Shown here one piece after another: positions 3,338-32,000 of a stretch of 32,000 nucleotides of DNA. The notes under the pieces are model-generated. The model was not told the origin of the DNA and made no database searches. It worked only from the letters and a program-made list of their open reading frames with translations. The first letter of the stretch is position 1; the number at the start of each line of letters is the position of its first letter. Made by a program: the position numbers and the translations under genes. Source of the DNA: Candidatus Sericytochromatia bacterium (GTDB lineage: Bacteria; Cyanobacteriota; Sericytochromatia; S15B-MN24; UBA4093); contig JAKFCW010000047.1 of NCBI GenBank assembly GCA_036676455.1, positions 69,203 to 101,202 of the forward strand, given 5' to 3'.

Positions 3338-4480
3338 CTAGGCCCCGAAGCCGTTGGGGGCGGGGCCCCGGCGCAGCCAGTTGAGGAAGCCCTGCAAGGG
3401 CTGGGGCTGCAGGGTCATCAGAGCCATGGTCTGGCGGGACTCCCCCATGGCAGCCACCATGCGGGAAAGCTCGCGCGCCAGCGGTCCCCGGGGATCGGAC
3501 TGCAAGATCGGGATGCCCTGGTTGACGGCCGCGCGGACGCGCCCCGGATCGTGAGGCAGGGTGTAGTCGATCGGGCGCTTCAGGGTACGGGCGGCATCCT
3601 CGCGTGAGACCTCGGAGCGCTCGGCCCAGGCCACGAACTCGAAGCGCGAGGTGTCGATCCCTTGCTCTCTCAAGGAGGCCAGGTCCCGCTGGATGGCCCG
3701 CAGGTGGCTGAGATCCAGGTTGAGGGGAACGAAGACGCGATCGGCCTCGCGCAGCAGCGTCCGGTTGAGCTCGGTTTGCGACGGATGGGTGTCCGCGACG
3801 ATCCAGGCATCGCGCTGCTGCAGCCAGCCCAGGAGCTGCGCGAGGCGCTCGGGGGTCGTTGGAGCCTCGGAGGGCGTTGGCGCCATGAGCCGCACCCCGG
3901 TCGGGTGGGTGGCCAGGCAGGCGTCCAGGCGGTGTGGCGTGGTGACGCTCGAGAAGCCTTGCGGCTGGAGGTTGAGGAAGAGGTCCTGCTCGCCATGGGC
4001 CATGGCGGCGTCGAGGACGATCGTCTCGCGGGAGGTGCTGCGGGAGAGGGCGATCGCCAGGTTGGTCGCCAGCTGCGAGCGGCCGGAGCCTCCCTTGGGG
4101 CCGTAGACGACGATGAGCTTGCCCGAGCGGGGGCGCTCCGGCGGCTTCCGGGTCATCTCGGCGAGGATCCGCTCGAGCGACGTGTCGAGGTCAGCGAGGC
4201 TCGTCACCCCGTCTTTGCCCTCGGGGCCGTCCACCAGGAGCACGCGGGCCTCGGGGCATGCGGCCCGCAGGCCCTCCATCAAGGCGTCGGAACGCGCGCT
4301 CCAGGCCACGATCAGGAGATCGGGACGGCTCAGCGAGGCAAAGCCGATGGCCTCCTCGCCGAGGGCCTCACCGATCAGCGAAAAGCCGGAATGAGACCTG
4401 AGGCGAGGGCCCACGCTGCTCCAATCAGCCTGGTCGACGGGCGCCTGAGGGGAAGAGACCAGCAAGGTACGTAACATCAT
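3338..4480 (-). CDS. TadZ/CpaE-like ParA/MinD-family protein with an N-terminal pseudo-receiver domain
   Basis: I place the start at the ATG at 4480, which forms an ATGA overlap with the upstream stop (MMLRTLLVSS...). The P-loop region is LIVVYGPKGGSGRSQLATNLAIAL and the Walker-B-like segment is DAWIVADTHP. The N-terminal ~120 aa are receiver-like but lack an Asp at the acceptor position (PDLLIVAWSA). Confidence 0.8.
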   Translation of the reverse strand: MMLRTLLVSSPQAPVDQADWSSVGPRLRSHSGFSLIGEALGEEAIGFASLSRPDLLIVAWSARSDALMEGLRAACPEARVLLVDGPEGKDGVTSLADLDTSLERILAEMTRKPPERPRSGKLIVVYGPKGGSGRSQLATNLAIALSRSTSRETIVLDAAMAHGEQDLFLNLQPQGFSSVTTPHRLDACLATHPTGVRLMAPTPSEAPTTPERLAQLLGWLQQRDAWIVADTHPSQTELNRTLLREADRVFVPLNLDLSHLRAIQRDLASLREQGIDTSRFEFVAWAERSEVSREDAARTLKRPIDYTLPHDPGRVRAAVNQGIPILQSDPRGPLARELSRMVAAMGESRQTMALMTLQPQPLQGFLNWLRRGPAPNGFGA

Positions 4481-4818
4481 GATGCCGACGCTCCTTTTGA
4501 CGATTTGGCAGGGGCGGCGTCGATGATCTCGACCTTCAGGTCGGGCCCGTCCCATGAGAAGACGATCTGGCCGGGGCGGTCATGCGTGACCACCACGCGG
4601 CGCACGCTGCGGGGCGCCCCCGCAGGCAACACCTCCTGGCCCGGCAGGGGGGCCGCGACGGCCGGCAGGATCAGGGTCGCGGGATCCATTGCGGAGGAGG
4701 GTGCCGGGGGCTGCTGCTGGGTGGCGTAGAGGGCGCCGGTGGCGAGCAGGCCGCAGCACGCGGCGATCACGATCCGTTGCGGCGTGAGGTTACTGGTGAG
4801 GTTTCGCATGGCACTCAT
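4477..4818 (-). CDS. small membrane-anchored protein of unknown function, first gene of the Tad-like operon
   Basis: 113-aa ORF with GGGAGG upstream. It has one TM segment (IVIAACCGLLATGALY) followed by a Pro/Ala-rich region. It is translationally coupled (ATGA) to the TadZ-like gene. No family was recognised. Confidence 0.55.
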   Translation of the reverse strand: MSAMRNLTSNLTPQRIVIAACCGLLATGALYATQQQPPAPSSAMDPATLILPAVAAPLPGQEVLPAGAPRSVRRVVVTHDRPGQIVFSWDGPDLKVEIIDAAPAKSSKGASAS

Positions 4819-8499: not shown

Positions 8500-8528
8500 T
8501 AGTTAACCTTACCATTGCTTGCTTCAAA
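8500..8528 (-). promoter_or_regulatory. candidate promoter for the 343-aa lipoprotein gene
   Basis: On the minus strand: TTGAAG (8528-8523), a 17-nt spacer, then TAACTA (8505-8500). It sits in the most A/T-rich patch of the 101-nt gap. Confidence 0.2.
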
Positions 8529-9294
8529 CGGCTCCACCATGAGCAAGAAGTCGCTCGGTATCGGCGTAAATTGCCAGGTAATACGGAACCGTCAGCCGCT
8601 TTTGATCCTCGCACTCGAGCACCCATCCCAGGGGATGCGATACCAATACCCGTCCGTACAGGTTGCCCAGGCGCAAGCCCTCTCCAGGCCTGACCTTTTT
8701 CAAGCCCCTTCCCAAGACGAGGCTGGACAGGAGCAAACCGGTGGGGACAGCGAGGAGCGCCGAGACCCAAGGGGCCCAGGTAGCAAGGACGCTGAGTTCC
8801 AGGGTGGCCGCCAGGGTCGAAAGCCCGAATTGCGCGGATAGCAAGGCCGTCGCGATGCAGAGGGGAGGAAGGGCGATCGCCCCTTGCGGAACGATCCGCA
8901 TCTGGCGCTCCAGCTTCCGTTGCGCCGCGTCCTCGAGCTTGGCGAGCAACTCCGCGAGCACCGCTGCCACCGTTTCGGGATCGTCAGTCTGATCGAGAGT
9001 TTGCGTGAGACTTCCCCACGGGTCCCCATCCGATGGCTCAACGGGTTCGATGAGTGGCTTGCCTCTGGTCAGGAAATCGAAGAGGCGAACCCTGGATCGG
9101 ACGCTGGCATCCGGATCCGAGACAGCATCGGGAAAAACGTAGGGATTCGGACGTGGAGCGAGCTCCGGCGCTTCCACCTTGAAGACGTAGGGACTTCGAC
9201 GCGGTAGGCCCTTGATCGTGTTCAGGTCGATGACGTTAGCCATGGGACGTGCCGCAGGCGGTAGATCGGAAGTTCGCTGAGGGACGGACATCAC
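8524..9294 (-). CDS. two-TM membrane protein of unknown function, last gene of the mot operon
   Basis: 256-aa ORF. GTG at 9294 or ATG at 9291 overlaps the motB stop. The N-terminal ~140 aa are Pro/Asp-rich and soluble. Two hydrophobic segments follow (AIALPPLCIATALLSAQFGLSTL, WVSALLAVPTGLLLSSLVLG), then a short C-terminal domain. Confidence 0.65.
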   Translation of the reverse strand: MMSVPQRTSDLPPAARPMANVIDLNTIKGLPRRSPYVFKVEAPELAPRPNPYVFPDAVSDPDASVRSRVRLFDFLTRGKPLIEPVEPSDGDPWGSLTQTLDQTDDPETVAAVLAELLAKLEDAAQRKLERQMRIVPQGAIALPPLCIATALLSAQFGLSTLAATLELSVLATWAPWVSALLAVPTGLLLSSLVLGRGLKKVRPGEGLRLGNLYGRVLVSHPLGWVLECEDQKRLTVPYYLAIYADTERLLAHGGAV

Positions 9295-10025
9295 GGGGCC
9301 TCCTTCGGTTCGACCACGGGAATGGTTGCCGGGCGAGACTCGGGATAGAGCCGGATCACGATCCTGCGGTTGCGCGCCTGATTCTCCGGAATCGGCTTGC
9401 CCGCAGCGTCACGGTTGGGAACCTTCGGGTGGATATCCGAGTAGCCTGCGGCCTTGAGGCGCGATTGCTCCACGTCGGCCTCCAGCATGAAGCGGATGAC
9501 GTTCGTGGCCCGCCGCGCGGAGAGCTCCCAGTTGGAGGGAAATTCGGCGGTGCGAATCGGGTTATCGTCCGTATGCCCCTCCACCTCGATGGTGTAGGAA
9601 CGGTAGGTTTCGTTCTTCAACTCCTCGGCGATCTCGGTGAAGGTAGGCTTGATCGTCGGCAACAGCTCGGCCTTGCCGCTGTTGAAGAGGATGTTGGACG
9701 AGAATTCGACTACCACGCCCTTCTTGTCCTGGCTGACCTCGACCTGCTTTTCAAGGCCCTTGCTCTCGACGATCCGCTCGATCTGCTGCTTGATCTCCGA
9801 AATCGGACGTGCCGTTTCCTTACCGGTAAAGTCCTTTTGAAGCTGGGCGGAGACCTGCTCGAAGGCGCTGATGTCGACCGTTGAGACCGCCAGCATCATG
9901 ATGAAGAGCGCCATCAGGTTGGTGATGGTGTCGGCGTACGTGATCAGCCAGCCCTCGTCCTCCTGAAGTCCGCTGGAGCGGTGGGATCCGAAGGGATTGC
10001 GGTTCTGGCCGAAAGGACTTGCCAT
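9291..10025 (-). CDS. motB: MotB-type stator subunit with an OmpA-like peptidoglycan-binding domain
   Basis: 244-aa ORF. The TM segment carries the conserved Asp (WLITYADTITNLMALFIMMLAV). The C-terminal OmpA-like motif is VEGHTDDNPIRTAEFPSNWELSARRATNVIRFM. Confidence 0.9.
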   Translation of the reverse strand: MASPFGQNRNPFGSHRSSGLQEDEGWLITYADTITNLMALFIMMLAVSTVDISAFEQVSAQLQKDFTGKETARPISEIKQQIERIVESKGLEKQVEVSQDKKGVVVEFSSNILFNSGKAELLPTIKPTFTEIAEELKNETYRSYTIEVEGHTDDNPIRTAEFPSNWELSARRATNVIRFMLEADVEQSRLKAAGYSDIHPKVPNRDAAGKPIPENQARNRRIVIRLYPESRPATIPVVEPKEAP

Positions 10026-10846
10026 CAGGTCCTCGCGGGGGTCTTAGCCCCCTTCGATGCCGCGAAGTGGTCGTAGTGGAAGGCGGGATCCATCAGCGCG
10101 TTCAAGCGATCCTGGACGTACAGGGGCGCCTTCTTCTGCGCGATGAGGACGATGCCCTCGAGTTGCATGTAGCGGCGGTGGCGCTGGATTTCCAGGATCT
10201 GCTGGGTCTTGGAGGCCGCCGGGATGAAGAGCAGGCGGGCCGCCATGACGCCATAGAGGGTGGCCAGGAGCGCCACGGCCATCGCGGGACCGATCTTGGA
10301 GGGGTCGGATCCCATGTTGGCCATCATGATGACCAGACCGATCAAGGTCCCCACCATCCCGAAGGCCGGCGCATGGCCACCCATCTGGTGAAGGATGGTG
10401 GCGGGAACCATGCGTCGCTGATGCTCCGACTCGATGAAGTCCCCCAGGAACAAGCGCAGGTCGGGCTCCTTGTAGCCGTTCATGAGCAGGGTCAGGGCGT
10501 ACTTCAAGAAGCCATCGAGCTTCTTTTTGGCGACCTCATCCTCGAGGGGACCGAGGCTCTGCTGGGTCGCGTAAGACCACTCGACCATCTGCTTGATGTC
10601 TGAGCGCAGGGTGCTGGGCTGGATCGGCTGCATGACGAAGATGCGGCCGAGCGTGACGAGCGCGCGCCAGACGTAGCGACTCCGCGCCCCGATCATCGCC
10701 GCGGCCACGGTGCCGCCGAAGATGATGGCAAACGGCTCCAAGCTCCAGAACATCGCGATGCTGCCGGAGTGCGCGACGATCGCCCAGCCGGTCAGGCCGA
10801 AGCCCAGGATGATTCCGAGGACGGTGGAGATCGAGATCATCGGCAT
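10025..10846 (-). CDS. motA: MotA/PomA-type stator channel subunit
   Basis: 273-aa ORF with GGAGG upstream. There are two N-terminal TM segments and a large cytoplasmic loop. The signature GGHAPAFGMVGTLIGLVIMM is present, and the last TM segment contains LLFIPAASK. Both conserved prolines are present. Confidence 0.9.
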   Translation of the reverse strand: MPMISISTVLGIILGFGLTGWAIVAHSGSIAMFWSLEPFAIIFGGTVAAAMIGARSRYVWRALVTLGRIFVMQPIQPSTLRSDIKQMVEWSYATQQSLGPLEDEVAKKKLDGFLKYALTLLMNGYKEPDLRLFLGDFIESEHQRRMVPATILHQMGGHAPAFGMVGTLIGLVIMMANMGSDPSKIGPAMAVALLATLYGVMAARLLFIPAASKTQQILEIQRHRRYMQLEGIVLIAQKKAPLYVQDRLNALMDPAFHYDHFAASKGAKTPART

Positions 10847-10855
10847 TTCAACCTC

Positions 10856-12013
10856 CTATCGGAACGACATGCCGATGGTGGCATGGTAGCTCATCCCGCC
10901 GTACGTCATCGAATTCGCATAGCCGCTGCCGGCTGGGGCCAGGCTGACGTCCTGCTGCGGCACGTAGGTGAGCCCGAGGTTCATGAAGAGGTCCGGCGTG
11001 AAGCGGATCAAGAAGCCTCCCTTTGCGGTGGAGGGCTGGCGCAACGCGTCTGCGAGCGAGATCGCGAAGCCCGGCCCTGCGTACAGGTTGACCACGCCGA
11101 GGTTGTCCTTGCCCCCGAAGAGCGGGTCGAGACGCATGAACAGCAAGGGGGAGACGTTGACCAGGCCGTGATAGAGCGAGAAGTCGACGCCGCCGCCCTG
11201 GATGTACTCGGCATCGATACCGACCGCGAGATTCTCCCAGAAGTAGGTGTTGCGGAGCGCCATCACGCCAGCGCTCAGCGAGAGATCCGCATGACGCGCG
11301 GGAACTCCGGCCGTGGACGAGACCCGGTCGGCGGCGAAGCCCGTCACGCCGGAATAAAGGTAGACGCCATTGTCCCGGGTCTTCCGCTCGAGTTCGGCGC
11401 GCTTGGCGGCCTCGGCCTTGCGGGCTTCTTCCTCCGCCTTGGCGCGCATGGCGGCGCCCTGCCGAACGGCGTTGAAGTCGTAGGCATAGCGATGCGTCCA
11501 GACGATCTCGCCATCCGAGGCGCGCACCAGCTTGAGATGAACCATGACCACCTCGTTGGTCACGAAGGGCGCGTACATGAGCACGGCATCCGCCCCGACG
11601 TTTCCGGCCAGATCGCGCAGGCGATCCAGCGACTCGATGGTCGTGCTGACCTGGAGCTCGGTAGGCGTCGAGACGATCTTGCGGACCTTAGACTCGCGCG
11701 ACTCCACCACCTTGAAGCGACGAAGCGGCAGCAAGAGCTCGTGAAGGCGGTTCTCGACGAGGAGATCCAGCTTGTCGGTCTCGGGGCGGCGGCGCTCATT
11801 GAAAAGAAAGATCCGCAATAGCGTGGGATCGATCTTGGTGATCTCCTCGGGAAGCGCCGGGATGATCTGCTCGGCAGCCTGACTGTAGTTCAAGAGATCC
11901 GTGACGAGGGGATGCAGGGCAGGCGGCTCGACCTCGGCCATTGCCGGCGACGCGACGCTAGTCAAGGCGAGCGAAAGCGCGATTCCTCCAGATAGTAGCC
12001 ACTTGGCGCTCAC
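10856..12013 (-). CDS. secreted protein: periplasmic alpha/beta domain, charged coil and C-terminal beta-barrel (putative outer-membrane component)
   Basis: 385-aa ORF with a GTG start and GGAGGAGG upstream. The signal peptide is ALSLALTSVASPAMA-EV. The coil is AAMRAKAEEEARKAEAAKRAELERK. The last ~190 aa show alternating hydrophobicity and are Gly/aromatic-rich, ending in ...YHATIGMSFR. Confidence 0.75.
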   Translation of the reverse strand: MSAKWLLSGGIALSLALTSVASPAMAEVEPPALHPLVTDLLNYSQAAEQIIPALPEEITKIDPTLLRIFLFNERRRPETDKLDLLVENRLHELLLPLRRFKVVESRESKVRKIVSTPTELQVSTTIESLDRLRDLAGNVGADAVLMYAPFVTNEVVMVHLKLVRASDGEIVWTHRYAYDFNAVRQGAAMRAKAEEEARKAEAAKRAELERKTRDNGVYLYSGVTGFAADRVSSTAGVPARHADLSLSAGVMALRNTYFWENLAVGIDAEYIQGGGVDFSLYHGLVNVSPLLFMRLDPLFGGKDNLGVVNLYAGPGFAISLADALRQPSTAKGGFLIRFTPDLFMNLGLTYVPQQDVSLAPAGSGYANSMTYGGMSYHATIGMSFR

Positions 12014-12016
12014 CGA

Positions 12017-12766
12017 TTACCTCCTCCGATTCCGAATCCAGTCAAGCGCTTGCTGCGCGTCCGAGAGCCGTGGGTCCAACTCGAGGGCCCGGACCCACCC
12101 TTCCTCCGCCTGGCGCTCCCGACCAAGCTTGAAGCAAATCGATCCCCGCATGGCATGCAGGTGCGCCACCTGGTCGTCCACGCCCAGCGCGGCATCGACG
12201 ACCTCCAGGGCACTCTGGTAGCGGCCCTGCTGGGCCAGGCGCGGAGCACGGTAGAGCGCGTCGGCGACGATCTGCAGGCGTTCCGAGCCCAGCTCACGCG
12301 ACGCCGGTATCGCCGGAGCCTTGGCAGCGGCCGGCATCGGCAGCTCCGCATTCTTCGGGGTGGGAGTGGGGGAGGCCTGCGCCTGCAACTCCTCTTCCGC
12401 ATACTGCAGCCATTCGTAGGGCACATGGCTGGCGCTGGGGGAAGGCATCGGCTCGGGAAGGGCGCTGGTGGCCGACTCCTTGGCGTCGGTGCTCGAGGCT
12501 TCAGGGGTCGGCGAGGCCGCGGGAATCGCCCCCGGCGCGGGAGATTTGTCCATCTCGATGCGCAGGAAGAAATCAGGTTGATTGGTATCCAAGAGGGAAT
12601 CCACGTCAACCGTTTCCAGCCCGCGCTTCAGGTGGATGACTCCCTCGCGCTGGCCGGAAACCGGCGACGTCAGGCCCTGCTGGATGAGGACGAGGGGAAG
12701 CGTGGCGACGATGGTCAGGCCGTAGGCGATCGCCCAGACGCGCCGACGGTTCGGCAGATTTGCCAT
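12017..12766 (-). CDS. inner-membrane-anchored periplasmic TPR protein
   Basis: 249-aa ORF with GGAGGAAA upstream. The positively charged N-terminus and TM segment are MANLPNRRRVWAIAYGLTIVATLPLVLI. A Pro/Ala/Ser linker leads to C-terminal TPR-like units (RLAQQGRYQSALEVVDAAL, HAMRGSICFKLGRERQAEEGWVRALELDP). Confidence 0.75.
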   Translation of the reverse strand: MANLPNRRRVWAIAYGLTIVATLPLVLIQQGLTSPVSGQREGVIHLKRGLETVDVDSLLDTNQPDFFLRIEMDKSPAPGAIPAASPTPEASSTDAKESATSALPEPMPSPSASHVPYEWLQYAEEELQAQASPTPTPKNAELPMPAAAKAPAIPASRELGSERLQIVADALYRAPRLAQQGRYQSALEVVDAALGVDDQVAHLHAMRGSICFKLGRERQAEEGWVRALELDPRLSDAQQALDWIRNRRR

Positions 12767-12768
12767 GG

Positions 12769-14613
12769 TTAGTTTCCTCCGGCTTGCGGAATCACCAGCA
12801 CGCGGGTGGTCTGGCGAATCCGGCTAAGCAAATCACGGCGCATGGCCTCCCGGGCCTCCGGGTTGGCATCCAGCAGAGACGGGCCCTTGAGGGCCTCCTC
12901 GACGACCATGCGGCCGCGCTCGTTGAGCGCACCAACGAGCGCGTTGAGCACGTCGGCCGGCGCATCGCGCAGCACCTCGGCGAGTTGCTCCTTGGGGAAA
13001 TCGCGGACCGCATCGCGCAGCACGTCCTTGGGGAGCTTCGGCAAGTCGTCGAATGCCACGTAGCTTTGCTTGACCTGCTTGAGCACCTGGGGGTTCTGGG
13101 TCGACAGCTCCTGCATGATGCGCCGCTCCATCTCCCGGTCGGAGTGGTCCAACAGGCCCACCAGCACGCCGATGCCGTTGGTGACGCCCGTCGAGAAGCG
13201 CGGCGCCTCCGACGCCTTGCTTGCAAGGTGAAGCGCGATGTCGTTGAAGGTCTCGAGGGGAATCTCGGAAAGCGCGCCCATGGCTGCGGTGACGGTTCCC
13301 AGCTCCCCGGGACTCAGCAGGTGCATCAGGCCGATCGCCCGCTGGGGAGGCAGCTGGGAGAAGGCCAGCGCCTGGACGCGTGGGGACTCGTCCTGGAGGA
13401 TGTAAATGATTTGCGAGTCGTCGAGCGTCTGAAGAAAGGCGAAAGGCTCGTTACGGCGCGTGCTCGTCCGAGAACCGGCCGTGTGGCGATCGCGCACGAT
13501 GGCGCGAATGGCCTCGCTGAGGGCCTGTTGCAACTCCTCGGCGGGAACGTCGGCACGCTCGAACTGCTTGAGCTCGATCGCCCGCCAGATTTCCTCCGAG
13601 ACGCCTGCGAAGAGGCGACGGCTCACGCCCGCCCCGAGGGTACGGGTCAGCAGCGAGGCCCGCTCCATGCCAAGTTCTTGACCGAGCAGCTGGTGCATGT
13701 AGCGCTCGGCAAGCTCGGGCTCGCTCAGGATCAGCATCGTCAACTCGTGGCGCAGCGGCTCGAGGTTGGGCCCCTGAGGCTCGGCCGGCGTGCTCTTGAG
13801 AGCCGAAGCCGCGTGTGCGGCCTGCGGTGCGAGGGAAGGCGCATCCGGACGACGGCGCGAACGCGTGAGCAGCCACCCCAAGCCCAGTCCGGCGCCGGCA
13901 GCCAGGACGGCCCACGCCCACGGCGGAAGGAGCGGAGAATCAGCCGTGCCGGCGGGAGTCGACGGGAAGTCGCGGCGCGTGATCTCGACGATCAGGTCCC
14001 GGGCGTAGGCATGATCCACCTTCTGGGCGACCATGTTGCGAATGAAGTCCTCATCCTGGCTCGTCAGGGAGGTGGGCAGCACGACAGAAACTTTCAAACG
14101 ATCGATCGACTGGGTTGGAGCCGGATCGTTCGGAGGAGCCACGGGCGCCGGATTCGGCAGATAGGGCATCGCCATGGAGGAAGGCGGCTCGAGCGTCTCA
14201 TCCTCACGCTGTCCCCCGAAGAGGCCCGGAAGGATCGGCGGCTCGTCGGCGCCACGTGTCGACAGAGCCGAGGGCCGCTGCGTCGGAAGCTGGGGCAGCA
14301 TCTGAGGCGCTTGCTGAGGGAGCGGCTGTTGCACGTAAGCGGGCCGCGAGCCGCGCTCTCCGCCCTCCTTGAGGATCGCCTTCACCTGCACGATGAAGCG
14401 GTCGGCGCCGAGGTAGGCGCTCAGGCCACGATCCAGGCTCTCCTCGAGGTAGCGCTCGTAGCTCAGCACTCCCAGCTCAGACTCCGATCGGGGAACTTCC
14501 GGCGGATTGAGCTGCGCGCTGGCGGCCATGGGAACGAGGGTCCCCGCCAGCAGCGCTCCAATAATGACGGCTTTTCGATTCTTCAACGGTACGCAACCTC
14601 GCAATTGGTTCAA
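12769..14613 (-). CDS. membrane protein: FliF-like periplasmic segments fused to a FliG-like cytoplasmic region (N, middle and C-terminal parts)
   Basis: 614-aa ORF. The start is uncertain: TTG at 14613 or TTG at 14586. There are two TM segments. FliF-like patterns are YERYLEESLDRGLSAYLGADRFIVQVKA and IDRLKVSVVLPT...ARDLIVEITRRDF, the second lying directly before TM2. FliG-like stretches are FLQTLDDSQIIYILQDESPRVQALAFSQLPPQRAIGLM and VAFDDLPKLPKDVLRDAVRDFPKEQLAEVLRDAPADVLNALVGALNERGRMVVEEAL. Confidence 0.8.
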   Translation of the reverse strand: MNQLRGCVPLKNRKAVIIGALLAGTLVPMAASAQLNPPEVPRSESELGVLSYERYLEESLDRGLSAYLGADRFIVQVKAILKEGGERGSRPAYVQQPLPQQAPQMLPQLPTQRPSALSTRGADEPPILPGLFGGQREDETLEPPSSMAMPYLPNPAPVAPPNDPAPTQSIDRLKVSVVLPTSLTSQDEDFIRNMVAQKVDHAYARDLIVEITRRDFPSTPAGTADSPLLPPWAWAVLAAGAGLGLGWLLTRSRRRPDAPSLAPQAAHAASALKSTPAEPQGPNLEPLRHELTMLILSEPELAERYMHQLLGQELGMERASLLTRTLGAGVSRRLFAGVSEEIWRAIELKQFERADVPAEELQQALSEAIRAIVRDRHTAGSRTSTRRNEPFAFLQTLDDSQIIYILQDESPRVQALAFSQLPPQRAIGLMHLLSPGELGTVTAAMGALSEIPLETFNDIALHLASKASEAPRFSTGVTNGIGVLVGLLDHSDREMERRIMQELSTQNPQVLKQVKQSYVAFDDLPKLPKDVLRDAVRDFPKEQLAEVLRDAPADVLNALVGALNERGRMVVEEALKGPSLLDANPEAREAMRRDLLSRIRQTTRVLVIPQAGGN

Positions 14614-23096: not shown

Positions 23097-24389
23097 TTAG
23101 AACTTGAAGGTGTTGGAGAGCGTGTAAGAGGCGCCCCGGGCGTTGCCGCCCACGCCATTGAGGGCCGCCATGGCAAAGTCCAGGCGGAAGAGGGGCATGT
23201 CCAGCCCCAGGCCGGTGGCGAACGTCAGGCCACGATCTCCCCCCAGGGCGATACCCCCGCGGACCGGGAGCCAGTCGAGCAGGCGCAGCTCGGAGCCGAC
23301 CCGCAGTTCCGGCGTGCGCGAAACGCCGAAGCCATCGCCGTAGCCGAGTTGCAGCTCGCCGCTCAGCGTGAACGGATCCCAGGGCTTGAAGGCCGCTGCG
23401 AGGCGCAGGTAGGGCGGTAGGACGATCTCCGAGGGGCCTTCCTGAGTCCGGGATTCCTTGAGGGCATCGCGGGTGACGGCCCCGAAGTCGGTCACGGAGC
23501 CCGAGGCGTCCACGACCGAGAAAGGCTCCACCTTGAGGGTGTAGGTGGTGACGTCGCGCCGGCTCCAGCTCATGACCCCGACGTTGCCAAGGATGGCGCC
23601 CCAGCGCAGGCGATCGCCCACCCTCCCGGCAGCTCCGAAGTCGGCCGCGATGCCGTTCCCACCCGTGGCCCATTCGGTCGATAGCCGCGCGTCGGCCGAG
23701 TACCGGCCGGACTCATCAACGGCCAGCAGCGTCCCGCGGGCCTCGCGGACACGGCCGTAGGCCAGTCCCCGCAGGTAACGCAGGTTCATGCCCAGGCTCG
23801 ATGTCTCACCCATCGGAAAGGCGAACGAGGAGCCGAGAGAGGCGACTGCCGTCGCCGTTGCCCCGCCCAGCGCATCGATCCCGACGTTGGGGACGGAGGC
23901 GTTGCCGTTGAGCGCAAGGGCGATCAGGTCCCGAGGCAGATCGAGCCCCTTGGTGTCCGCCACCGCATCCAGGAAGACGCCCGTTCGCGCGCTCGGCATG
24001 GACAGGGCCATCGAGGTGCCTCCGTCGAACAGGAAGCGCCATCCGGTCGGCGGCAAGGCCTCGAGCACACCGGCGACGTTGGTGGGCTCGATCGCCTGGG
24101 TCGAGATCAAGCCGGCAAGCTCGCCGAAGGACAAGACGTTGTTCCCGAGGGCCAGGTTCAGGTTGGGCAGCAGCGTGAGCGAGAGGCGATCGCGACGCGA
24201 CTCGAGCCCCAGCAGGGCCGGGTTCACGATCATGGCGTCGGCGTCCATGGCGATCGCCGCGTTGGCCCCGGCCATACCCGCACTCCGGGCGTTGCCATAG
24301 GCGTACGCAGGGAGCGCGGGAGCAAGGCTCGTCAGCATGGCGGAGATAGCGGCCAGGGTGCCGCGCGACCGGAAACGGGAAAGGCTCAC
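23097..24389 (-). CDS. outer-membrane beta-barrel protein, FadL/PorV-like
   Basis: 430-aa ORF. The GTG start forms a GTGA overlap with the upstream gene. The signal peptide ends in ALPAYA-YG. The N-terminal motif is NARSAGMAGANAAIAMDADAMIVNPALLG. Gly/aromatic-rich alternating strands run throughout. The C-terminus is ...YTLSNTFKF. Confidence 0.8.
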   Translation of the reverse strand: MSLSRFRSRGTLAAISAMLTSLAPALPAYAYGNARSAGMAGANAAIAMDADAMIVNPALLGLESRRDRLSLTLLPNLNLALGNNVLSFGELAGLISTQAIEPTNVAGVLEALPPTGWRFLFDGGTSMALSMPSARTGVFLDAVADTKGLDLPRDLIALALNGNASVPNVGIDALGGATATAVASLGSSFAFPMGETSSLGMNLRYLRGLAYGRVREARGTLLAVDESGRYSADARLSTEWATGGNGIAADFGAAGRVGDRLRWGAILGNVGVMSWSRRDVTTYTLKVEPFSVVDASGSVTDFGAVTRDALKESRTQEGPSEIVLPPYLRLAAAFKPWDPFTLSGELQLGYGDGFGVSRTPELRVGSELRLLDWLPVRGGIALGGDRGLTFATGLGLDMPLFRLDFAMAALNGVGGNARGASYTLSNTFKF

Positions 24390-27979: not shown

Positions 27980-28954
27980 TTAGGGAGTCGTCTTGGCGAA
28001 GGTGTCGATCACCCGCAGCACGGCCGGCCCCAGCGTCACGACGAACATCGCCGGGAAGATGAAGAAGACCAGCGGGAAGAGCATCTTGATCGGAGCCTTC
28101 ATCGCGGCTTCCTGCGCCCGCTGCCGGCGGCGGGTCCGCAGGTGCACGCTCTGGGTCCGGAGGACGATGCCGATGCCGACGCCCAGCTGATCCGCCTGGA
28201 TCAGGGCGGCGACCACGCCTTCGAGGTCCGCGACCCCGCAGCGCATGCTCATCTCGCGCAGGGCCTCCGCGCGGGGGCGGCCCATGCGGATGTCGCTGAG
28301 GTAGCGCGCGAACTCCTCGCGCAGCTCGCGCCCCGCGTCGTTATCCTTGCCCGTGATGCGCATCAGCGCCGCGTCGAAGCTGATACCCGCCTCCACGCAC
28401 GAGGTGATCAGGTCAAGCGCATCCGGCAGCGCCCGCACGATGGCGTCCCGGCGCGCCGCGATCATCTTCGTCAGCAAAATGCCCGGCCCCGCGAGGCCCA
28501 AGATGCCGATCAGCGCCGCGGCGATCAAGGCCGCGCCGGGGTTGAACGGTGTCAGCAGCCACCAAACCAGCGGAGCCAGCGCCACGCCCAGGAGGCGCAG
28601 GGCCAGCATCCCTTGCAACGCGATGGGAGCGTAGACTCCCGCCTGGTGCAGCCGGTCCGAGAGCACGGTAATCTGGGAGCGCGGAGTCAACCGCTCGCCC
28701 ATCTTGCCCAGAACGCCGATGGCCGGGGCGATCACCCGCTGGACGAAGGGCTGATCCAGCAGCTGCTGGCGAGGCATGTAGCCGCCGGTGGCTCCCTGAA
28801 CCGCCACCAGGGAGGCAATCCGACGGTTGACGTCCCGCTCGCGCGAGGTGGACAGGCCGAAGCCCACCATCGTGGCCGACGTGACGGCCACGAAGCAGGC
28901 GGCCGCCATCACGACCGGATCTGCCGCCAGAATCATAGGTGCAACAAGCATCAT
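27980..28954 (-). CDS. tadC: Tad/Flp pilus assembly platform protein TadC (T2SS-F family)
   Basis: 324-aa ORF with the canonical T2SS-F domain (LPDALDLITSCVEAGISFDAALMRITGKD...LREEFARYLSDIRMGRPRAEALREM). The C-terminal segment is KAPIKMLFPLVFFIFPAMFVV. Confidence 0.85.
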   Translation of the reverse strand: MMLVAPMILAADPVVMAAACFVAVTSATMVGFGLSTSRERDVNRRIASLVAVQGATGGYMPRQQLLDQPFVQRVIAPAIGVLGKMGERLTPRSQITVLSDRLHQAGVYAPIALQGMLALRLLGVALAPLVWWLLTPFNPGAALIAAALIGILGLAGPGILLTKMIAARRDAIVRALPDALDLITSCVEAGISFDAALMRITGKDNDAGRELREEFARYLSDIRMGRPRAEALREMSMRCGVADLEGVVAALIQADQLGVGIGIVLRTQSVHLRTRRRQRAQEAAMKAPIKMLFPLVFFIFPAMFVVTLGPAVLRVIDTFAKTTP

Positions 28955-28955
28955 G

Positions 28956-29894
28956 CTAGTACCTCACGTCCACGATCTTCATGATCAGCATCACGCCCAG
29001 GATCTCCGAGACGACGCCCCCGGCCACGAGCATCTGGCCGCGCGGGTCCGTGAAGAGGCCCATGATGTAGCTGGGGCTGATCAGGAAGAAGAGGGCGCCG
29101 ATGCCCACCGGCAAGCCGGCCAGGACCCATCCCGACAGCCGGCCCTGCGCGGTGAGGGCCTGGACCTCGCCGGAGATGCGGATCCGGTCGCGGATGGTGT
29201 CATGGATGTTGCCCAGGATCTCGCTCAGGTTGCCGCCGGTCTCGCGCTGGATGACCATGGCCTGGACCATCAGGTCCACGTCGGTGGTGCCGACCCGGTC
29301 GCGCAGGTTGCGCAGTGCCGTCTCAGTGGGCACGCCGAAGTTGATCTCGGCGACGGCGGTGCCGAACTCGGTCGAGATGGGGGCGCTCATCTGGCGGGAT
29401 ACCATCTGGATGGCCTGCAGGAAGGAGTTACCCGCCTTCAAGGCATTGATGACGAGCATGAGCGCGTCAGGAAGCTGCTCGCTGAAGGCCTTGAGGGTCT
29501 TGGTGCGACGCTGCCGGAGCTGGAAGGTCGGGCCTAGCGAGCCCACGGCCGCCACGGCCAGAGCGATCAAGGGGTTCTGGAAGAGGAAGAAGGCCATGGC
29601 GCCGCAAGCGAGGCCCAGGAGGGCACCGGCCAGCATGAACTCGCCAGGCGTCCATGCCCAACCCACCTGGTAGAGCTGGCGATCGAGGCGTTTGGCGATC
29701 GCCAGCCCCTTCACCAGCGGATCCACCATCGCGCCCAGCCGGTTGAAGAGCTTGGGCTTCACCGCCGGCGCGTGCGGCTGCTCCAGCTGGCTGATGCGGC
29801 CGTCGATGGCGGCCTCCTGGGGGTTGCCCATCATGCCCCCCAGGGCGAAGACGACCCCCGTGATGCCGATGGCGAGAATCAGGAACGTGATCAT
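28956..29894 (-). CDS. tadB: Tad/Flp pilus assembly platform protein TadB (T2SS-F family)
   Basis: The start at 29894 (MITFLILAIGITGVVFALGG) forms an ATGA overlap with the cpaF stop. The T2SS-F domain is LPDALMLVINALKAGNSFLQAIQMV...EINFGVPTETALRNLRDR. Confidence 0.85.
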   Translation of the reverse strand: MITFLILAIGITGVVFALGGMMGNPQEAAIDGRISQLEQPHAPAVKPKLFNRLGAMVDPLVKGLAIAKRLDRQLYQVGWAWTPGEFMLAGALLGLACGAMAFFLFQNPLIALAVAAVGSLGPTFQLRQRRTKTLKAFSEQLPDALMLVINALKAGNSFLQAIQMVSRQMSAPISTEFGTAVAEINFGVPTETALRNLRDRVGTTDVDLMVQAMVIQRETGGNLSEILGNIHDTIRDRIRISGEVQALTAQGRLSGWVLAGLPVGIGALFFLISPSYIMGLFTDPRGQMLVAGGVVSEILGVMLIMKIVDVRY

Positions 29895-31339
29895 GCCCAC
29901 CCTCCGATCTGGAAGAGGTCGACCGGCAGCGGAATGCCCTTGAGCTTGAGCTGGTCGGCGCACTTGGGACGGATGCCCGTGGGGCGGTGCTCGCCCACGA
30001 TCCGGCCGTTCTCGTCCACGCCCTGGCGGACGAAGGTGTAGATGTCCTGAAGCTGGAGGATGTCTCCTTCCATGCCGACCACCTCGGTGATCGACGTGAC
30101 CCGGCGGGCGCCATCGGTCGAGCGCTCGATCTGGAGGATCAGGTTGATGGCCGAGGCCGTCTGCTCGCGGATGGCGCGCAGCGGCAGGTCCATGCCGGCC
30201 ATCAGGACCATGGTCTCGAGGCGGGCCAGCGCGTCGCGCGTGGTGTTCGCGTGAATGGTCGCCAGGGATCCCTCGTGGCCGGTGTTCATGGCCTGAAGCA
30301 TCGCCAGGGCCTCGCCGCCGCGGATCTCACCCAGGATGATGCGGTCGGGGCGCATACGCAGCGAGTTCTTGACCAGCTCGGACTGGTCGATGCGGCCGGC
30401 CCCTTCGACGTTGGCAGGCCGGGTCTCCAGGCGGATGACGTGATCCTGCTGCAGCTGCAGCTCGGCGGCGTCCTCGATGGTGATCAGGCGCTCGTGCTCC
30501 GGGATGAACGAGGAGAGCACGTTCAAGAGCGTCGTCTTACCGGATCCGGTTCCTCCCGAGATGAGGACGTTGAGGCGGGCCTCGACGCAGCCCTTGAGGA
30601 ACTGGGCCATGGGATCGGTGAGGGACTTGTACTCGACAAGGCTATCGACCTTGAGGGGATCCTTGCGGAACTTACGGATCGTGAGGGCGGCCCCGTCGAT
30701 GGCCAGGGGGGGGATGATGGCGTTGACGCGCGAGCCGTCCGGCAGACGCGCGTCGCACATCGGGCTCGACTCGTCGATCCGGCGGCCGACCCGGCTCACG
30801 ATCCGGTCGATCACCCGCAGGAGGTGGGCGCCGTCGCTGAAGGTCACGTCCGTCTTCTCGATGCGGCCGCTGCGCTCGATGTAGACCGAGCGAGGTCCGT
30901 TGACCATGACCTCCGAGATCGAGTCGTCGGACAGGAGAGGCTCGATGGGGCCCAGGCCCATCATGTCGTGGAAGAGCTCCTCGGCCATGCGATCGCGCTC
31001 GATCCGGCTCACGAGGCGGTTGTCCTCAGCCAGCACCTGATCGATGCCGTGCCGGATGGCCTCCTTGATGGCGTCCGGTTTGCTGGTCTCGTCGAGGTTC
31101 TGGGAGCGCATGTTCTCGACGAGCAGGCGATGGACCTTGTTCTTGAGCTCGGTATGCGGATCCACCGGGGGGCGCGGGCGAGCGGCAGCGGGCTTCGGCG
31201 CCGCCTTGGCCTCTGCCGGGCGCGTGGAGATCGTCACCGCCTCCGGGTGCTCCGCCATGCTCGGAGCGGCCGGGACCGCGCCGGAGGGAGCTGATTCGGT
31301 CGCCGAGGGCGCACCCTTAAGCCGATTGCGTAGGAACAT
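29891..31339 (-). CDS. cpaF: CpaF/TadA-type secretion ATPase
   Basis: The start at 31339 (MFLRNRLKG) has GGAGG upstream. Walker A is LISGGTGSGKTTLLNVL and Walker B is ERLITIEDAAEL. The His-box region is TGHEGSLATIHAN. Confidence 0.9.
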   Translation of the reverse strand: MFLRNRLKGAPSATESAPSGAVPAAPSMAEHPEAVTISTRPAEAKAAPKPAAARPRPPVDPHTELKNKVHRLLVENMRSQNLDETSKPDAIKEAIRHGIDQVLAEDNRLVSRIERDRMAEELFHDMMGLGPIEPLLSDDSISEVMVNGPRSVYIERSGRIEKTDVTFSDGAHLLRVIDRIVSRVGRRIDESSPMCDARLPDGSRVNAIIPPLAIDGAALTIRKFRKDPLKVDSLVEYKSLTDPMAQFLKGCVEARLNVLISGGTGSGKTTLLNVLSSFIPEHERLITIEDAAELQLQQDHVIRLETRPANVEGAGRIDQSELVKNSLRMRPDRIILGEIRGGEALAMLQAMNTGHEGSLATIHANTTRDALARLETMVLMAGMDLPLRAIREQTASAINLILQIERSTDGARRVTSITEVVGMEGDILQLQDIYTFVRQGVDENGRIVGEHRPTGIRPKCADQLKLKGIPLPVDLFQIGGWA

Positions 31340-32000
31340 CCAACAACCTCCTGACCGTGCGCCAGATCTGCGACAGCGGGTTCGATGCCACGGGGACGAC
31401 GGCGACCGTCTCGCGTGACTTGGGCTTGGCATAGGACTGGGCAATTTCCTTGACTGACTTGGCGAATGCTCCGTTGGGCTCGGAGATCAACAACGGCTCA
31501 CCAGCGTTCACCGCCGACAGGGCCTGCTCGGCTTGCCAGCCGAGCCGATGTGACAAGGGCCGCTGGATCACCCGTTGCGCCGCCTCGGCATTGATCTCGC
31601 TCGGCTGCTCGTAGCCGGCCACCTTGACCTTGTCCAGGTCGAGGCCCAGCTCGCCCCAGAGCCTGAGGCTCTGCTGCAGCGCCCGAAGCGCGGCCATGTC
31701 CATGGTGAGCGGAACCAGCACGGTATCCGCCAGCTCCATGGCCCGCAGGATGGGCTCGGTCAGCTGCGCACCGGTATCGATGACCGTCCAGGCGGAGCGG
31801 GACTTGAGCGTAGTGACGGTCCAGTCGACGGTCTGGGCGGTGACCAGCTCCGCATCCTCCGGGGTGGTCGCGGCGGGAAGGACCCGGACTCCGGACTTGG
31901 TATGCGTGAGAAGCGCCTGCTCGAGGGCCTCTCCGTCCGCCTTGGAGCCGAGCCGCGCGACGTCCGAAAGCGAGGGGCCGGGCTTGAGGTTGAAGAAGAG
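31317..32000 (-). CDS. cpaE: CpaE/TadZ-type ParA/MinD-family protein, C-terminal part (5' end lies beyond the right edge)
   Basis: The reading frame is open from the window edge to the stop at 31317. My translation includes ...SAWTVIDTGAQLTEPILRAMELADTVLVPLTMDMAALRALQ, a ParA/MinD Walker-B region. It lies directly upstream of cpaF. Confidence 0.75.
   Translation of the reverse strand, partial: LFFNLKPGPSLSDVARLGSKADGEALEQALLTHTKSGVRVLPAATTPEDAELVTAQTVDWTVTTLKSRSAWTVIDTGAQLTEPILRAMELADTVLVPLTMDMAALRALQQSLRLWGELGLDLDKVKVAGYEQPSEINAEAAQRVIQRPLSHRLGWQAEQALSAVNAGEPLLISEPNGAFAKSVKEIAQSYAKPKSRETVAVVPVASNPLSQIWRTVRRLLDVPTQSA

Follow-up and report, generated by a model that had tools for sequence, protein, structure and literature searches.

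The window examined here, a 32,000-nucleotide stretch of DNA from a Candidatus Sericytochromatia bacterium (assembly GCA_036676455.1, contig JAKFCW010000047.1, positions 69,203 to 101,202), carries on its minus strand a gene (10856–12013, stop codon included) for a secreted protein of 385 amino acids (aa). The protein combines a FlgO/LpoB-type periplasmic domain with a predicted eight-stranded outer-membrane beta-barrel; both domains are of known kinds, and their combination and genomic setting are new. Its gene was always found beside those of a flagellar-rotor-like (FliF/FliG-like) protein and a tetratricopeptide repeat (TPR) protein, which makes it probable that the product anchors a motor-like envelope machine, so far undescribed, in the outer membrane. 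We give a somewhat better than even chance to the protein acting as outer-membrane anchor and as scaffold subunit in a conserved module that has the FliF/FliG-like, TPR and FlgO-like/barrel proteins as its core and is usually encoded together with a MotA/MotB stator.

Export signal and domain architecture

All features of the protein and its operon given below lie on the minus strand. The open reading frame (ORF), taken from the ORF list, starts with a GTG codon at 12013, and its product ends in GMSFR. A Shine–Dalgarno sequence (GGAGGAGG, 12020–12027) was read from the sequence 6 nt 5′ of the GTG, within the end of the TPR gene. The ORF has 19 full-length homologues at 44–85% identity, whose alignment (A1, 19 sequences) contains 76 invariant columns. 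A profile search against 1.8 billion cluster representatives retrieved just 54 clusters at E ≤ 0.001, mostly of 330–410 aa. These results indicate that 10856–12013 is a real gene rather than a chance frame. It is single-copy and has no paralogues in the window's genome.

Residues 1–26 form a signal peptide (11936–12013) with the cleavage site AMA/E and no lipobox cysteine, as seen from the sequence and from its conservation among the homologues in A1. The close homologues likewise have no conserved lipobox cysteine after the signal peptide. The whole window protein contains no cysteine (count, 0), so that no lipid anchor is possible. No helical membrane segment was detected in the mature protein (Kyte–Doolittle cut-off of 1.6, 19-residue windows). 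The source gene call (P0001, 361 aa) begins at Met25 and leaves out the signal peptide (window 11941–12013). The GTG at 12013 is the better start, because the longer N-terminus with its signal peptide is conserved in the homologues. This upstream GTG is supported by all homologues and by the strong Shine–Dalgarno sequence. The clear signal peptide described in an earlier note on this DNA was thus confirmed. The stretches quoted there could also be located, with the N-terminal motif at residues 97–174, the charged stretch at residues 185–209 and GMSFR at the end.

A full-length AlphaFold2 model was built on A1 and had a mean predicted local distance difference test (pLDDT) score of 76.5. In this model and in the alignment, the mature protein begins with a conserved lead of short helices at residues 27–60 (11834–11935), the helices themselves spanning residues 37–59. 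The lead is followed by the FlgO/LpoB-type alpha/beta domain at residues 61–180 (11474–11833), which was modelled as a strand (67–72), two helices (77–94 and 127–139) and three further strands (143–151, 155–164 and 170–179). The Pfam FlgO family (PF17680) matched 14 of the 19 family members. Five orthologues from the same operon context, 44–48% identical to the window protein, reached the curated cut-off of 22.6 bits, scoring 22.6–32.7 bits over profile positions 11–120 of 130, and the FlgO homology of the window's domain follows from them by transitivity. Distant members of the family gave weak matches to LpoB, CsgG, FlgT_M and FlgO. When a profile of 34 members was compared with PDB sequences, LpoB was matched (E value, 0.028) exactly at the motif G-x-D...L-V...D-G-x-I-x-W; a search of the PDB with the single protein sequence returned noise only. 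Foldseek analysis of the modelled domain retrieved the LpoB C-domain (4q6z/4q6l; E value, 3e-4), PelC (9h80), GNA1162 (4hrv) and the TolB N-domain. The model thus points to a TolB-N/LpoB-like alpha/beta fold, and the earlier proposal of a CsgG/LpoB/FlgO-type fold was borne out by the Pfam matches of the orthologues, by the LpoB match at the very motif that had been named and by the structural matches.

Within this domain, the segment of residues 107–127 was poorly modelled (pLDDT, 37–59), yet it holds the densest run of invariant residues in A1. High conservation with poor modelling would be expected of a surface that becomes ordered only on binding, and this segment would therefore be the likeliest contact surface of the protein. 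In an alignment of 15 distant relatives (A3), a motif E-C-x-E-C-K with both cysteines invariant was observed, where the Sericytochromatia clade has E-S-R-E-S-K (residues 103–109, window about 11687–11707). Judging by these sequences, the motif of the distant relatives could serve as a disulfide or metal site in the periplasm, one that the Sericytochromatia clade has lost.

The C-terminal domain, residues 212–385 (10859–11380), was assigned as an eight-stranded outer-membrane beta-barrel on the basis of domain modelling, Foldseek matches and the pattern of loops, turns and alternating residues. In the full-length model, the beta domain extends to the C-terminus with pLDDT values mostly of 85–93. 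A second model, restricted to residues 208–385 and built with nine sequences from the window and related loci, reached a pLDDT of 83.4 and a predicted template-modelling score (pTM) of 0.76. Eight strands were present in both models (216–230, 240–255, 262–273, 282–295, 307–319, 328–337, 342–357 and 368–384). The top 50 PDB matches of the domain in Foldseek were all outer-membrane barrels, headed by the eight-stranded OprG, OmpA, OmpW, Ail, NspA and OmpX. The template-modelling (TM) scores, TMq/TMt, were 0.50/0.50 for OmpW and 0.46/0.52 for NspA, and TMt was 0.70 for the designed eight-stranded barrel 6x9z.

The sequence of the domain showed the same features. All eight strands display dyad (alternating) hydrophobicity, and the barrel has both of its ends in the periplasm. 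Conservation, as top-residue frequency in A1, is lowest in the four external loops (0.39–0.65) and ranks among the highest in the three periplasmic turns (0.76–0.91). The classical C-terminal signal of barrel proteins ends in an aromatic residue. As this signal would predict, the 24 most distant relatives in the broad alignment A2 end in Phe in 19 cases and in Leu or Ile in five. In the Sericytochromatia-type clade, Phe stands at position −2 and is followed by Arg or Lys (F-R or F-K). These results show that the C-terminal 174 residues have the sequence and the predicted fold of an eight-stranded barrel of the OmpA/OmpW class that follows Sec export, and the small C-terminal beta-barrel suggested earlier is retained. 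The barrel would take the place of the lipid anchor found in FlgO, FlgP, LpoB and PelC.

The two domains are joined by a charged Ala/Glu/Lys/Arg helix at residues 181–211 (31 residues; 11381–11473), predicted by AlphaFold2 as a single helix. The earlier note had read this part as a Lys/Glu/Ala coil; the helix is real, and a classical coiled coil fits it less well. The stretch of residues 185–209 consists of 36% Ala and 56% Glu, Lys and Arg, with one Met and one Leu as its sole large hydrophobic residues, a composition that better suits a rigid charged spacer than a heptad coiled coil. The helix segment contains 54% gaps in A2. The conserved Trp172 and the first strand of the barrel are 43 residues apart in every Sericytochromatia-type sequence but 12–29 in the distant relatives, and the helix is thus an extension specific to this clade. 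With it, the FlgO-like domain would sit about 4–5 nm lower (about 4.5 nm if fully helical).

Operon organization and distribution

The gene belongs to a run of six minus-strand genes from 14613 to 8524. Along this run, the first three junctions are gaps of 2, 3 and 9 nt and the last two are overlaps of 1 and 4 nt, indicating tight translational coupling. The first gene (12769–14613) encodes a FliF/FliG-like membrane protein of 614 aa with a periplasmic N-terminal part at about residues 35–225 followed by FliG_M and FliG_C domains, as identified by Pfam, NCBIfam and synteny. The second (12017–12766) encodes the TPR protein of 249 aa, which has an N-terminal membrane anchor or signal (hydrophobic segment 10–28), a Pro/Ala/Ser-rich linker and a C-terminal TPR region (Pfam TPR_2). 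The barrel protein gene is the third, and motA starts 9 nt past its stop codon with an AGGAGG of its own. The motA product (10025–10846) is a stator A subunit of the MotA/PomA type (Pfam MotA_ExbB; NCBIfam flagellar motor protein; E value, 7.7e-43). The motB product (9291–10025) is a stator B subunit with a plug and an OmpA-like peptidoglycan-binding domain (Pfam MotB_plug and OmpA; NCBIfam MotD; E value, 1.1e-48). The last gene (8524–9294), which overlaps motB by the 4 nt, encodes a protein of 256 aa with two hydrophobic segments and was matched just in the closest relative, at locus L005.

The TPR gene adjoins the barrel protein gene in every locus examined, and the FliF/FliG-like gene is syntenic in every locus that reaches far enough upstream. 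The order FliF/FliG-like, TPR, barrel protein, MotA, MotB is shared by the window, loci L001, L004 and L005 and the genomes of family f1 (Sericytochromatia; identity of the barrel protein, 44–73%). In relatives that are 20–25% identical (L028–L030), the order is barrel protein, TPR, FliF/FliG-like, MotA, MotB, and the flanking genes are unrelated housekeeping genes. The linkage of the gene to the TPR and FliF/FliG-like genes is thereby shown to span very distant lineages despite rearranged gene order.

In two cases, locus L027 and genome G001 of the sister family f2, the three genes occur without adjacent motAB. In L027 (617–6143), the barrel protein and TPR genes are followed by genes for a FliG-like protein of 710 aa and an outer-membrane transporter of the POTRA_2/ShlB (two-partner-secretion) type; the host is presumably a gamma- or beta-proteobacterium, as a ZapD neighbour suggests. 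In locus L042 (G001:C20, 9808–14719), the three genes are enlarged and are followed by a dihydrouridine synthase gene. Here, the FliF/FliG-like protein has 691 aa with FliG_N, FliG_M and FliG_C all over the Pfam cut-offs, and the TPR protein has 560 aa with a weakly BamE-like N-terminal part. The invariant core of the module therefore consists of the FliF/FliG-like, TPR and FlgO-like/barrel proteins, and adjacency of motAB is frequent but not universal.

The distribution of the family was surveyed in 401 sampled genomes of the phylum. Two families of the window's order carry it, in 8 of 9 and 8 of 8 of their other genomes (16 of 17 in all), always in a single copy. It was found in none of the eight genomes of a third family of the order (sister family f4), and elsewhere in the sample it was not found save for one weak partial match. 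A 5.4-kb contig labelled Stenomitos sp., a photosynthetic cyanobacterium (locus L003, DATNQJ010000590.1), carries the module at 45% identity. This contig may be mis-binned, since no other genome of the phylum outside the window organism's class had the family.

Other genes near the module were also considered. A gene for a DUF5723 (FadL-like) outer-membrane barrel lies at 23097–24389 of the window (minus strand), separated from the module by an array of six lipoproteins. A gene of this kind is located just upstream of the module in L001 (3766–4974), L004 (3819–5027) and L005 (3579–4862), in divergent orientation in L001 and L004. The window contains genes for Tad/type IV-like pili (CpaF, 29891–31444; TadB/C, 27980–29963; a TadZ-like protein, 3338–4555), but the module has no neighbours of this kind in L001 or L028–L030, and a conserved link to the pilus genes was rejected. 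A Zorya anti-phage system (ZorAB with ZorC/D/E) was likewise rejected. In PADLOC, just the MotB protein matched the ZorB models, with 83 bits compared to 166 bits for flagellar MotD, and neither the MotA protein nor the other four proteins gave a match.

Relation to the flagellum and to known envelope systems

The window's genome (4.0 Mb, 150 contigs, 86% complete) contains an ordinary set of flagellar genes. A flagellar cluster with FlhA, a canonical FliG and its own MotAB is located on contig C40, and the module sits on contig C47. Two flagellin-like genes and a total of four MotB_plug loci are present in the genome; besides the pairs on C40 and C47, two further MotA/MotB_plug pairs were observed on C67 and C136. 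One full FlhA and four partial FHIPEP matches were also seen (contigs C40, C80, C77, C65 and C28). In relatives, FlhA is typically encoded by two full-length genes, pointing to two export apparatuses per genome in the order. The absence of a flagellum cannot be claimed for the window organism.

FlhA was present in 26 of the 27 genomes of the order, and FlgI in all 26 genomes other than the window's, including those of the family that has no module. In the sister family f4, FlhA and FlgI occurred in all eight genomes and the module in none. FlgI and FlgH were not found in the 86% complete assembly of the window's genome; with FlgI in all 26 relatives, this lack is best read as an assembly gap. 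A role as an LP-ring substitute was dropped, as those 26 genomes have FlgI with or without the module. Rod, hook, filament and export genes are absent from the module itself. Overall, the genes of the module lie away from the flagellar cluster, include rotor-like and stator genes of their own and vary independently of flagellar genes within the order; this last point speaks against an obligatory tie to the flagellum. Given the ordinary flagellar genes that the host lineage has outside the module and the absence of the module from a flagellated sister family, the protein is neither a standard flagellar part nor a substitute for the LP-ring.

Outer-membrane-associated rings have been described for some flagellar motors. 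In Vibrio, FlgO and FlgP are lipoproteins whose concentric 58-fold rings lie beneath the outer membrane, with FlgO as the outer ring of the H-ring (V. cholerae in situ structure; preprint 10.64898/2025.12.02.691832). Vibrio FlgO and the window protein share a homologous periplasmic alpha/beta domain, an association with the outer membrane (predicted for the window protein) and an encoding together with motor parts of the MotAB/PomAB type. FlgO is, however, a lipoprotein of about 200 aa anchored through Cys16, whereas the window protein has no cysteine and instead a helical spacer and a C-terminal eight-stranded barrel. FlgO is encoded at the flgP/flgT locus within the flagellar regulon, and the window protein in a FliF/FliG-like/TPR/MotAB operon away from flagellar clusters. 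FlgO forms a ring, as the window protein may do.

In Campylobacter, the lipoprotein FlgP forms the basal disk, and the TPR proteins PflA and PflB connect this disk to the stators; PflB is anchored by one inner-membrane helix, and the stators fail to assemble without the disk (PMC7990780, PMC12222027). This scaffold and the module each comprise a small outer-membrane-associated alpha/beta protein, a TPR protein and MotAB, a likeness in kind of part. The single helix of PflB resembles the N-terminal anchor of the module's TPR protein. Unlike the window protein, Campylobacter FlgP is lipidated and adopts an SHS2-like fold in which a hairpin forms the ring, and its scaffold surrounds a full basal body with rod and LP-rings, for which the module encodes no genes. 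The genes for a FlgO/FlgP-type protein (here, of predicted outer-membrane location), a TPR protein and MotAB are adjacent and translationally coupled in the window and syntenic in distant lineages. The earlier note had taken FlgO/FlgP/FlgT of Vibrio as the closest analogy; this agrees with the FlgO-type domain, but the nearest working analogy includes the TPR partner, as in FlgP–PflA–PflB of Campylobacter.

Both domains also resemble proteins that function outside motors. LpoB, PelC and GNA1162 are the best fold matches for residues ~61–180, LpoB is also the best sequence match, and PelC forms a ring beneath the outer membrane. Unlike the window protein, all three are held by a lipid anchor and lack a barrel; they function in peptidoglycan synthesis or polysaccharide export, and none is linked to Mot or FliG genes. 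The OmpA N-domain, OmpW/OprG, OmpX/Ail and NspA share with the C-terminal domain the predicted fold, the number of strands, the dyad pattern, the short periplasmic turns and the variable external loops, but the sequence identity is just 10–15%, and these barrels end in Phe where the window's clade has Phe-Arg or Phe-Lys. The domain order of OmpA is the inverse of that of the window protein, whose periplasmic domain is N-terminal to the barrel.

Partly comparable genes have been reported. A FliF–FliG fusion occurs in Chlamydia (PMC4768692), motA2B2 of V. fischeri is dispensable for swimming (PMC3948606), and rotor proteins have been remarked on in non-motile genomes (PMC12199754). Literature searches on FliG-like/MotA non-flagellar systems, natural FliF–FliG fusions and FlgO-/LpoB-like proteins turned up no description of the window protein or its architecture.

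Proposed role and alternatives

An outer-membrane-anchored scaffold would be the most likely role, by analogy, because the module has the same kinds of parts as the scaffolds of Vibrio and Campylobacter. The protein would be exported by the Sec pathway, its signal peptide removed and its C-terminal barrel inserted into the outer membrane, from which the charged helix would lead down to the FlgO/LpoB-type domain. Like FlgO, FlgP and PelC, the FlgO-like domains may then associate side by side beneath the outer membrane. These domains may dock, directly or via the TPR protein, on the periplasmic part of the FliF/FliG-like ring, on MotB or on both, with segment 107–127 as the likeliest point of contact. 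An inner-membrane rotor–stator pair would thereby be tied to the outer membrane and its stators kept in register, in a working mode like that of the FlgP disk with PflA/PflB in Campylobacter or of the FlgO/FlgP H-ring with the T-ring in Vibrio. The earlier note had likewise proposed that the protein links an outer-membrane barrel to the periplasmic part of a motor operon. The conserved synteny agrees with this proposal and the physical link itself is one that we infer, but the operon has to be seen in a genome that holds a normal set of flagellar genes elsewhere.

Several points weigh against the scaffold. The window protein itself scored 13.7 bits against PF17680 (E value, 0.056), under the threshold and over residues 132–177 only. 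The TM-scores to solved barrels are just 0.4–0.5 (0.70 to the designed barrel), and closure of the barrel is suggested by fold matches rather than seen in coordinates. Ring formation and every contact are likewise what we infer, and the protein matched best by sequence, LpoB, acts as a monomeric regulator rather than forming rings. In addition, motAB is not adjacent in some lineages, so that a role as stator scaffold may not be universal.

The main rival is a reading in which the barrel protein is the output or load of the machine, with MotAB energy used via the FliF/FliG-like and TPR proteins to move or remodel the protein or its bound partner, as in TonB-receptors or TolA–Pal. The same synteny applies to this reading, and the inner-membrane anchor and long Pro/Ala/Ser linker of the TPR protein could span the periplasm. 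The ShlB/POTRA-type transporter beside the three genes in L027 and the DUF5723 barrel that neighbours the module in Sericytochromatia would fit it as well. Nevertheless, an eight-stranded barrel offers no obvious pore or plug to operate, and FliG_M and FliG_C point to rotation against MotA and not to a TonB-like pull. We regard a load function as rather unlikely, though the present data do not separate it from a scaffold.

It is less probable still, and on balance improbable, that the protein is an accessory ring protein (equivalent to the H-ring or basal disk) of the organism's ordinary flagellum that is encoded off the flagellar clusters. FlhA, canonical FliG, MotAB and flagellins are indeed encoded elsewhere in the genome, the FlgO homology would fit, and FlgO/FlgP-type and TPR proteins are flagellar in known motors. 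However, the module has a rotor protein and a stator of its own, and so does the flagellar cluster on C40, with its own FliG and MotAB. Distant copies lie among housekeeping genes, and the eight f4 genomes have FlhA and FlgI without the module. Moreover, motAB and fliG have been reported in Elusimicrobiota without structural flagellar genes (preprint 10.1101/2022.07.08.499144). A free-standing envelope protein that merely shares the motor operon, be it one that regulates peptidoglycan synthases as LpoB does or a structural protein like OmpA, is very improbable. LpoB is the best PDB sequence match and the barrel resembles the structural proteins OmpA and OmpW, but the linkage to the TPR and FliF/FliG-like genes persists at about 20% identity and in a changed gene order, and the members of this small family (54 clusters) were seen in no other context in the loci examined.

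The scaffold thus remains our preferred role, and it can be extended. We tentatively consider it possible, rather than probable, that the three core proteins powered by MotAB constitute a self-contained rotary or force-transmitting envelope-spanning machine independent of the flagellum, in which this protein builds an outer-membrane ring of integral barrel subunits. If true, such a motor ring would be unlike that of any described flagellar motor. To our knowledge, FlgO/FlgP-type proteins are known just as lipid-anchored accessory rings of certain high-torque flagellar motors.

The gene set puts the flagellar rotor (FliF/FliG) and stator (MotAB) to renewed use and encodes no rod, hook, filament or export components. 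As a single-copy gene with no paralogues in the window's genome and a product of two separable domains, it also offers a clean experimental target. Should the module prove to be a separate machine, this protein would be its sole integral outer-membrane part; it would bear on the evolution of periplasmic stator scaffolds and flagellar outer rings and would provide a handle for finding what the motor acts on.

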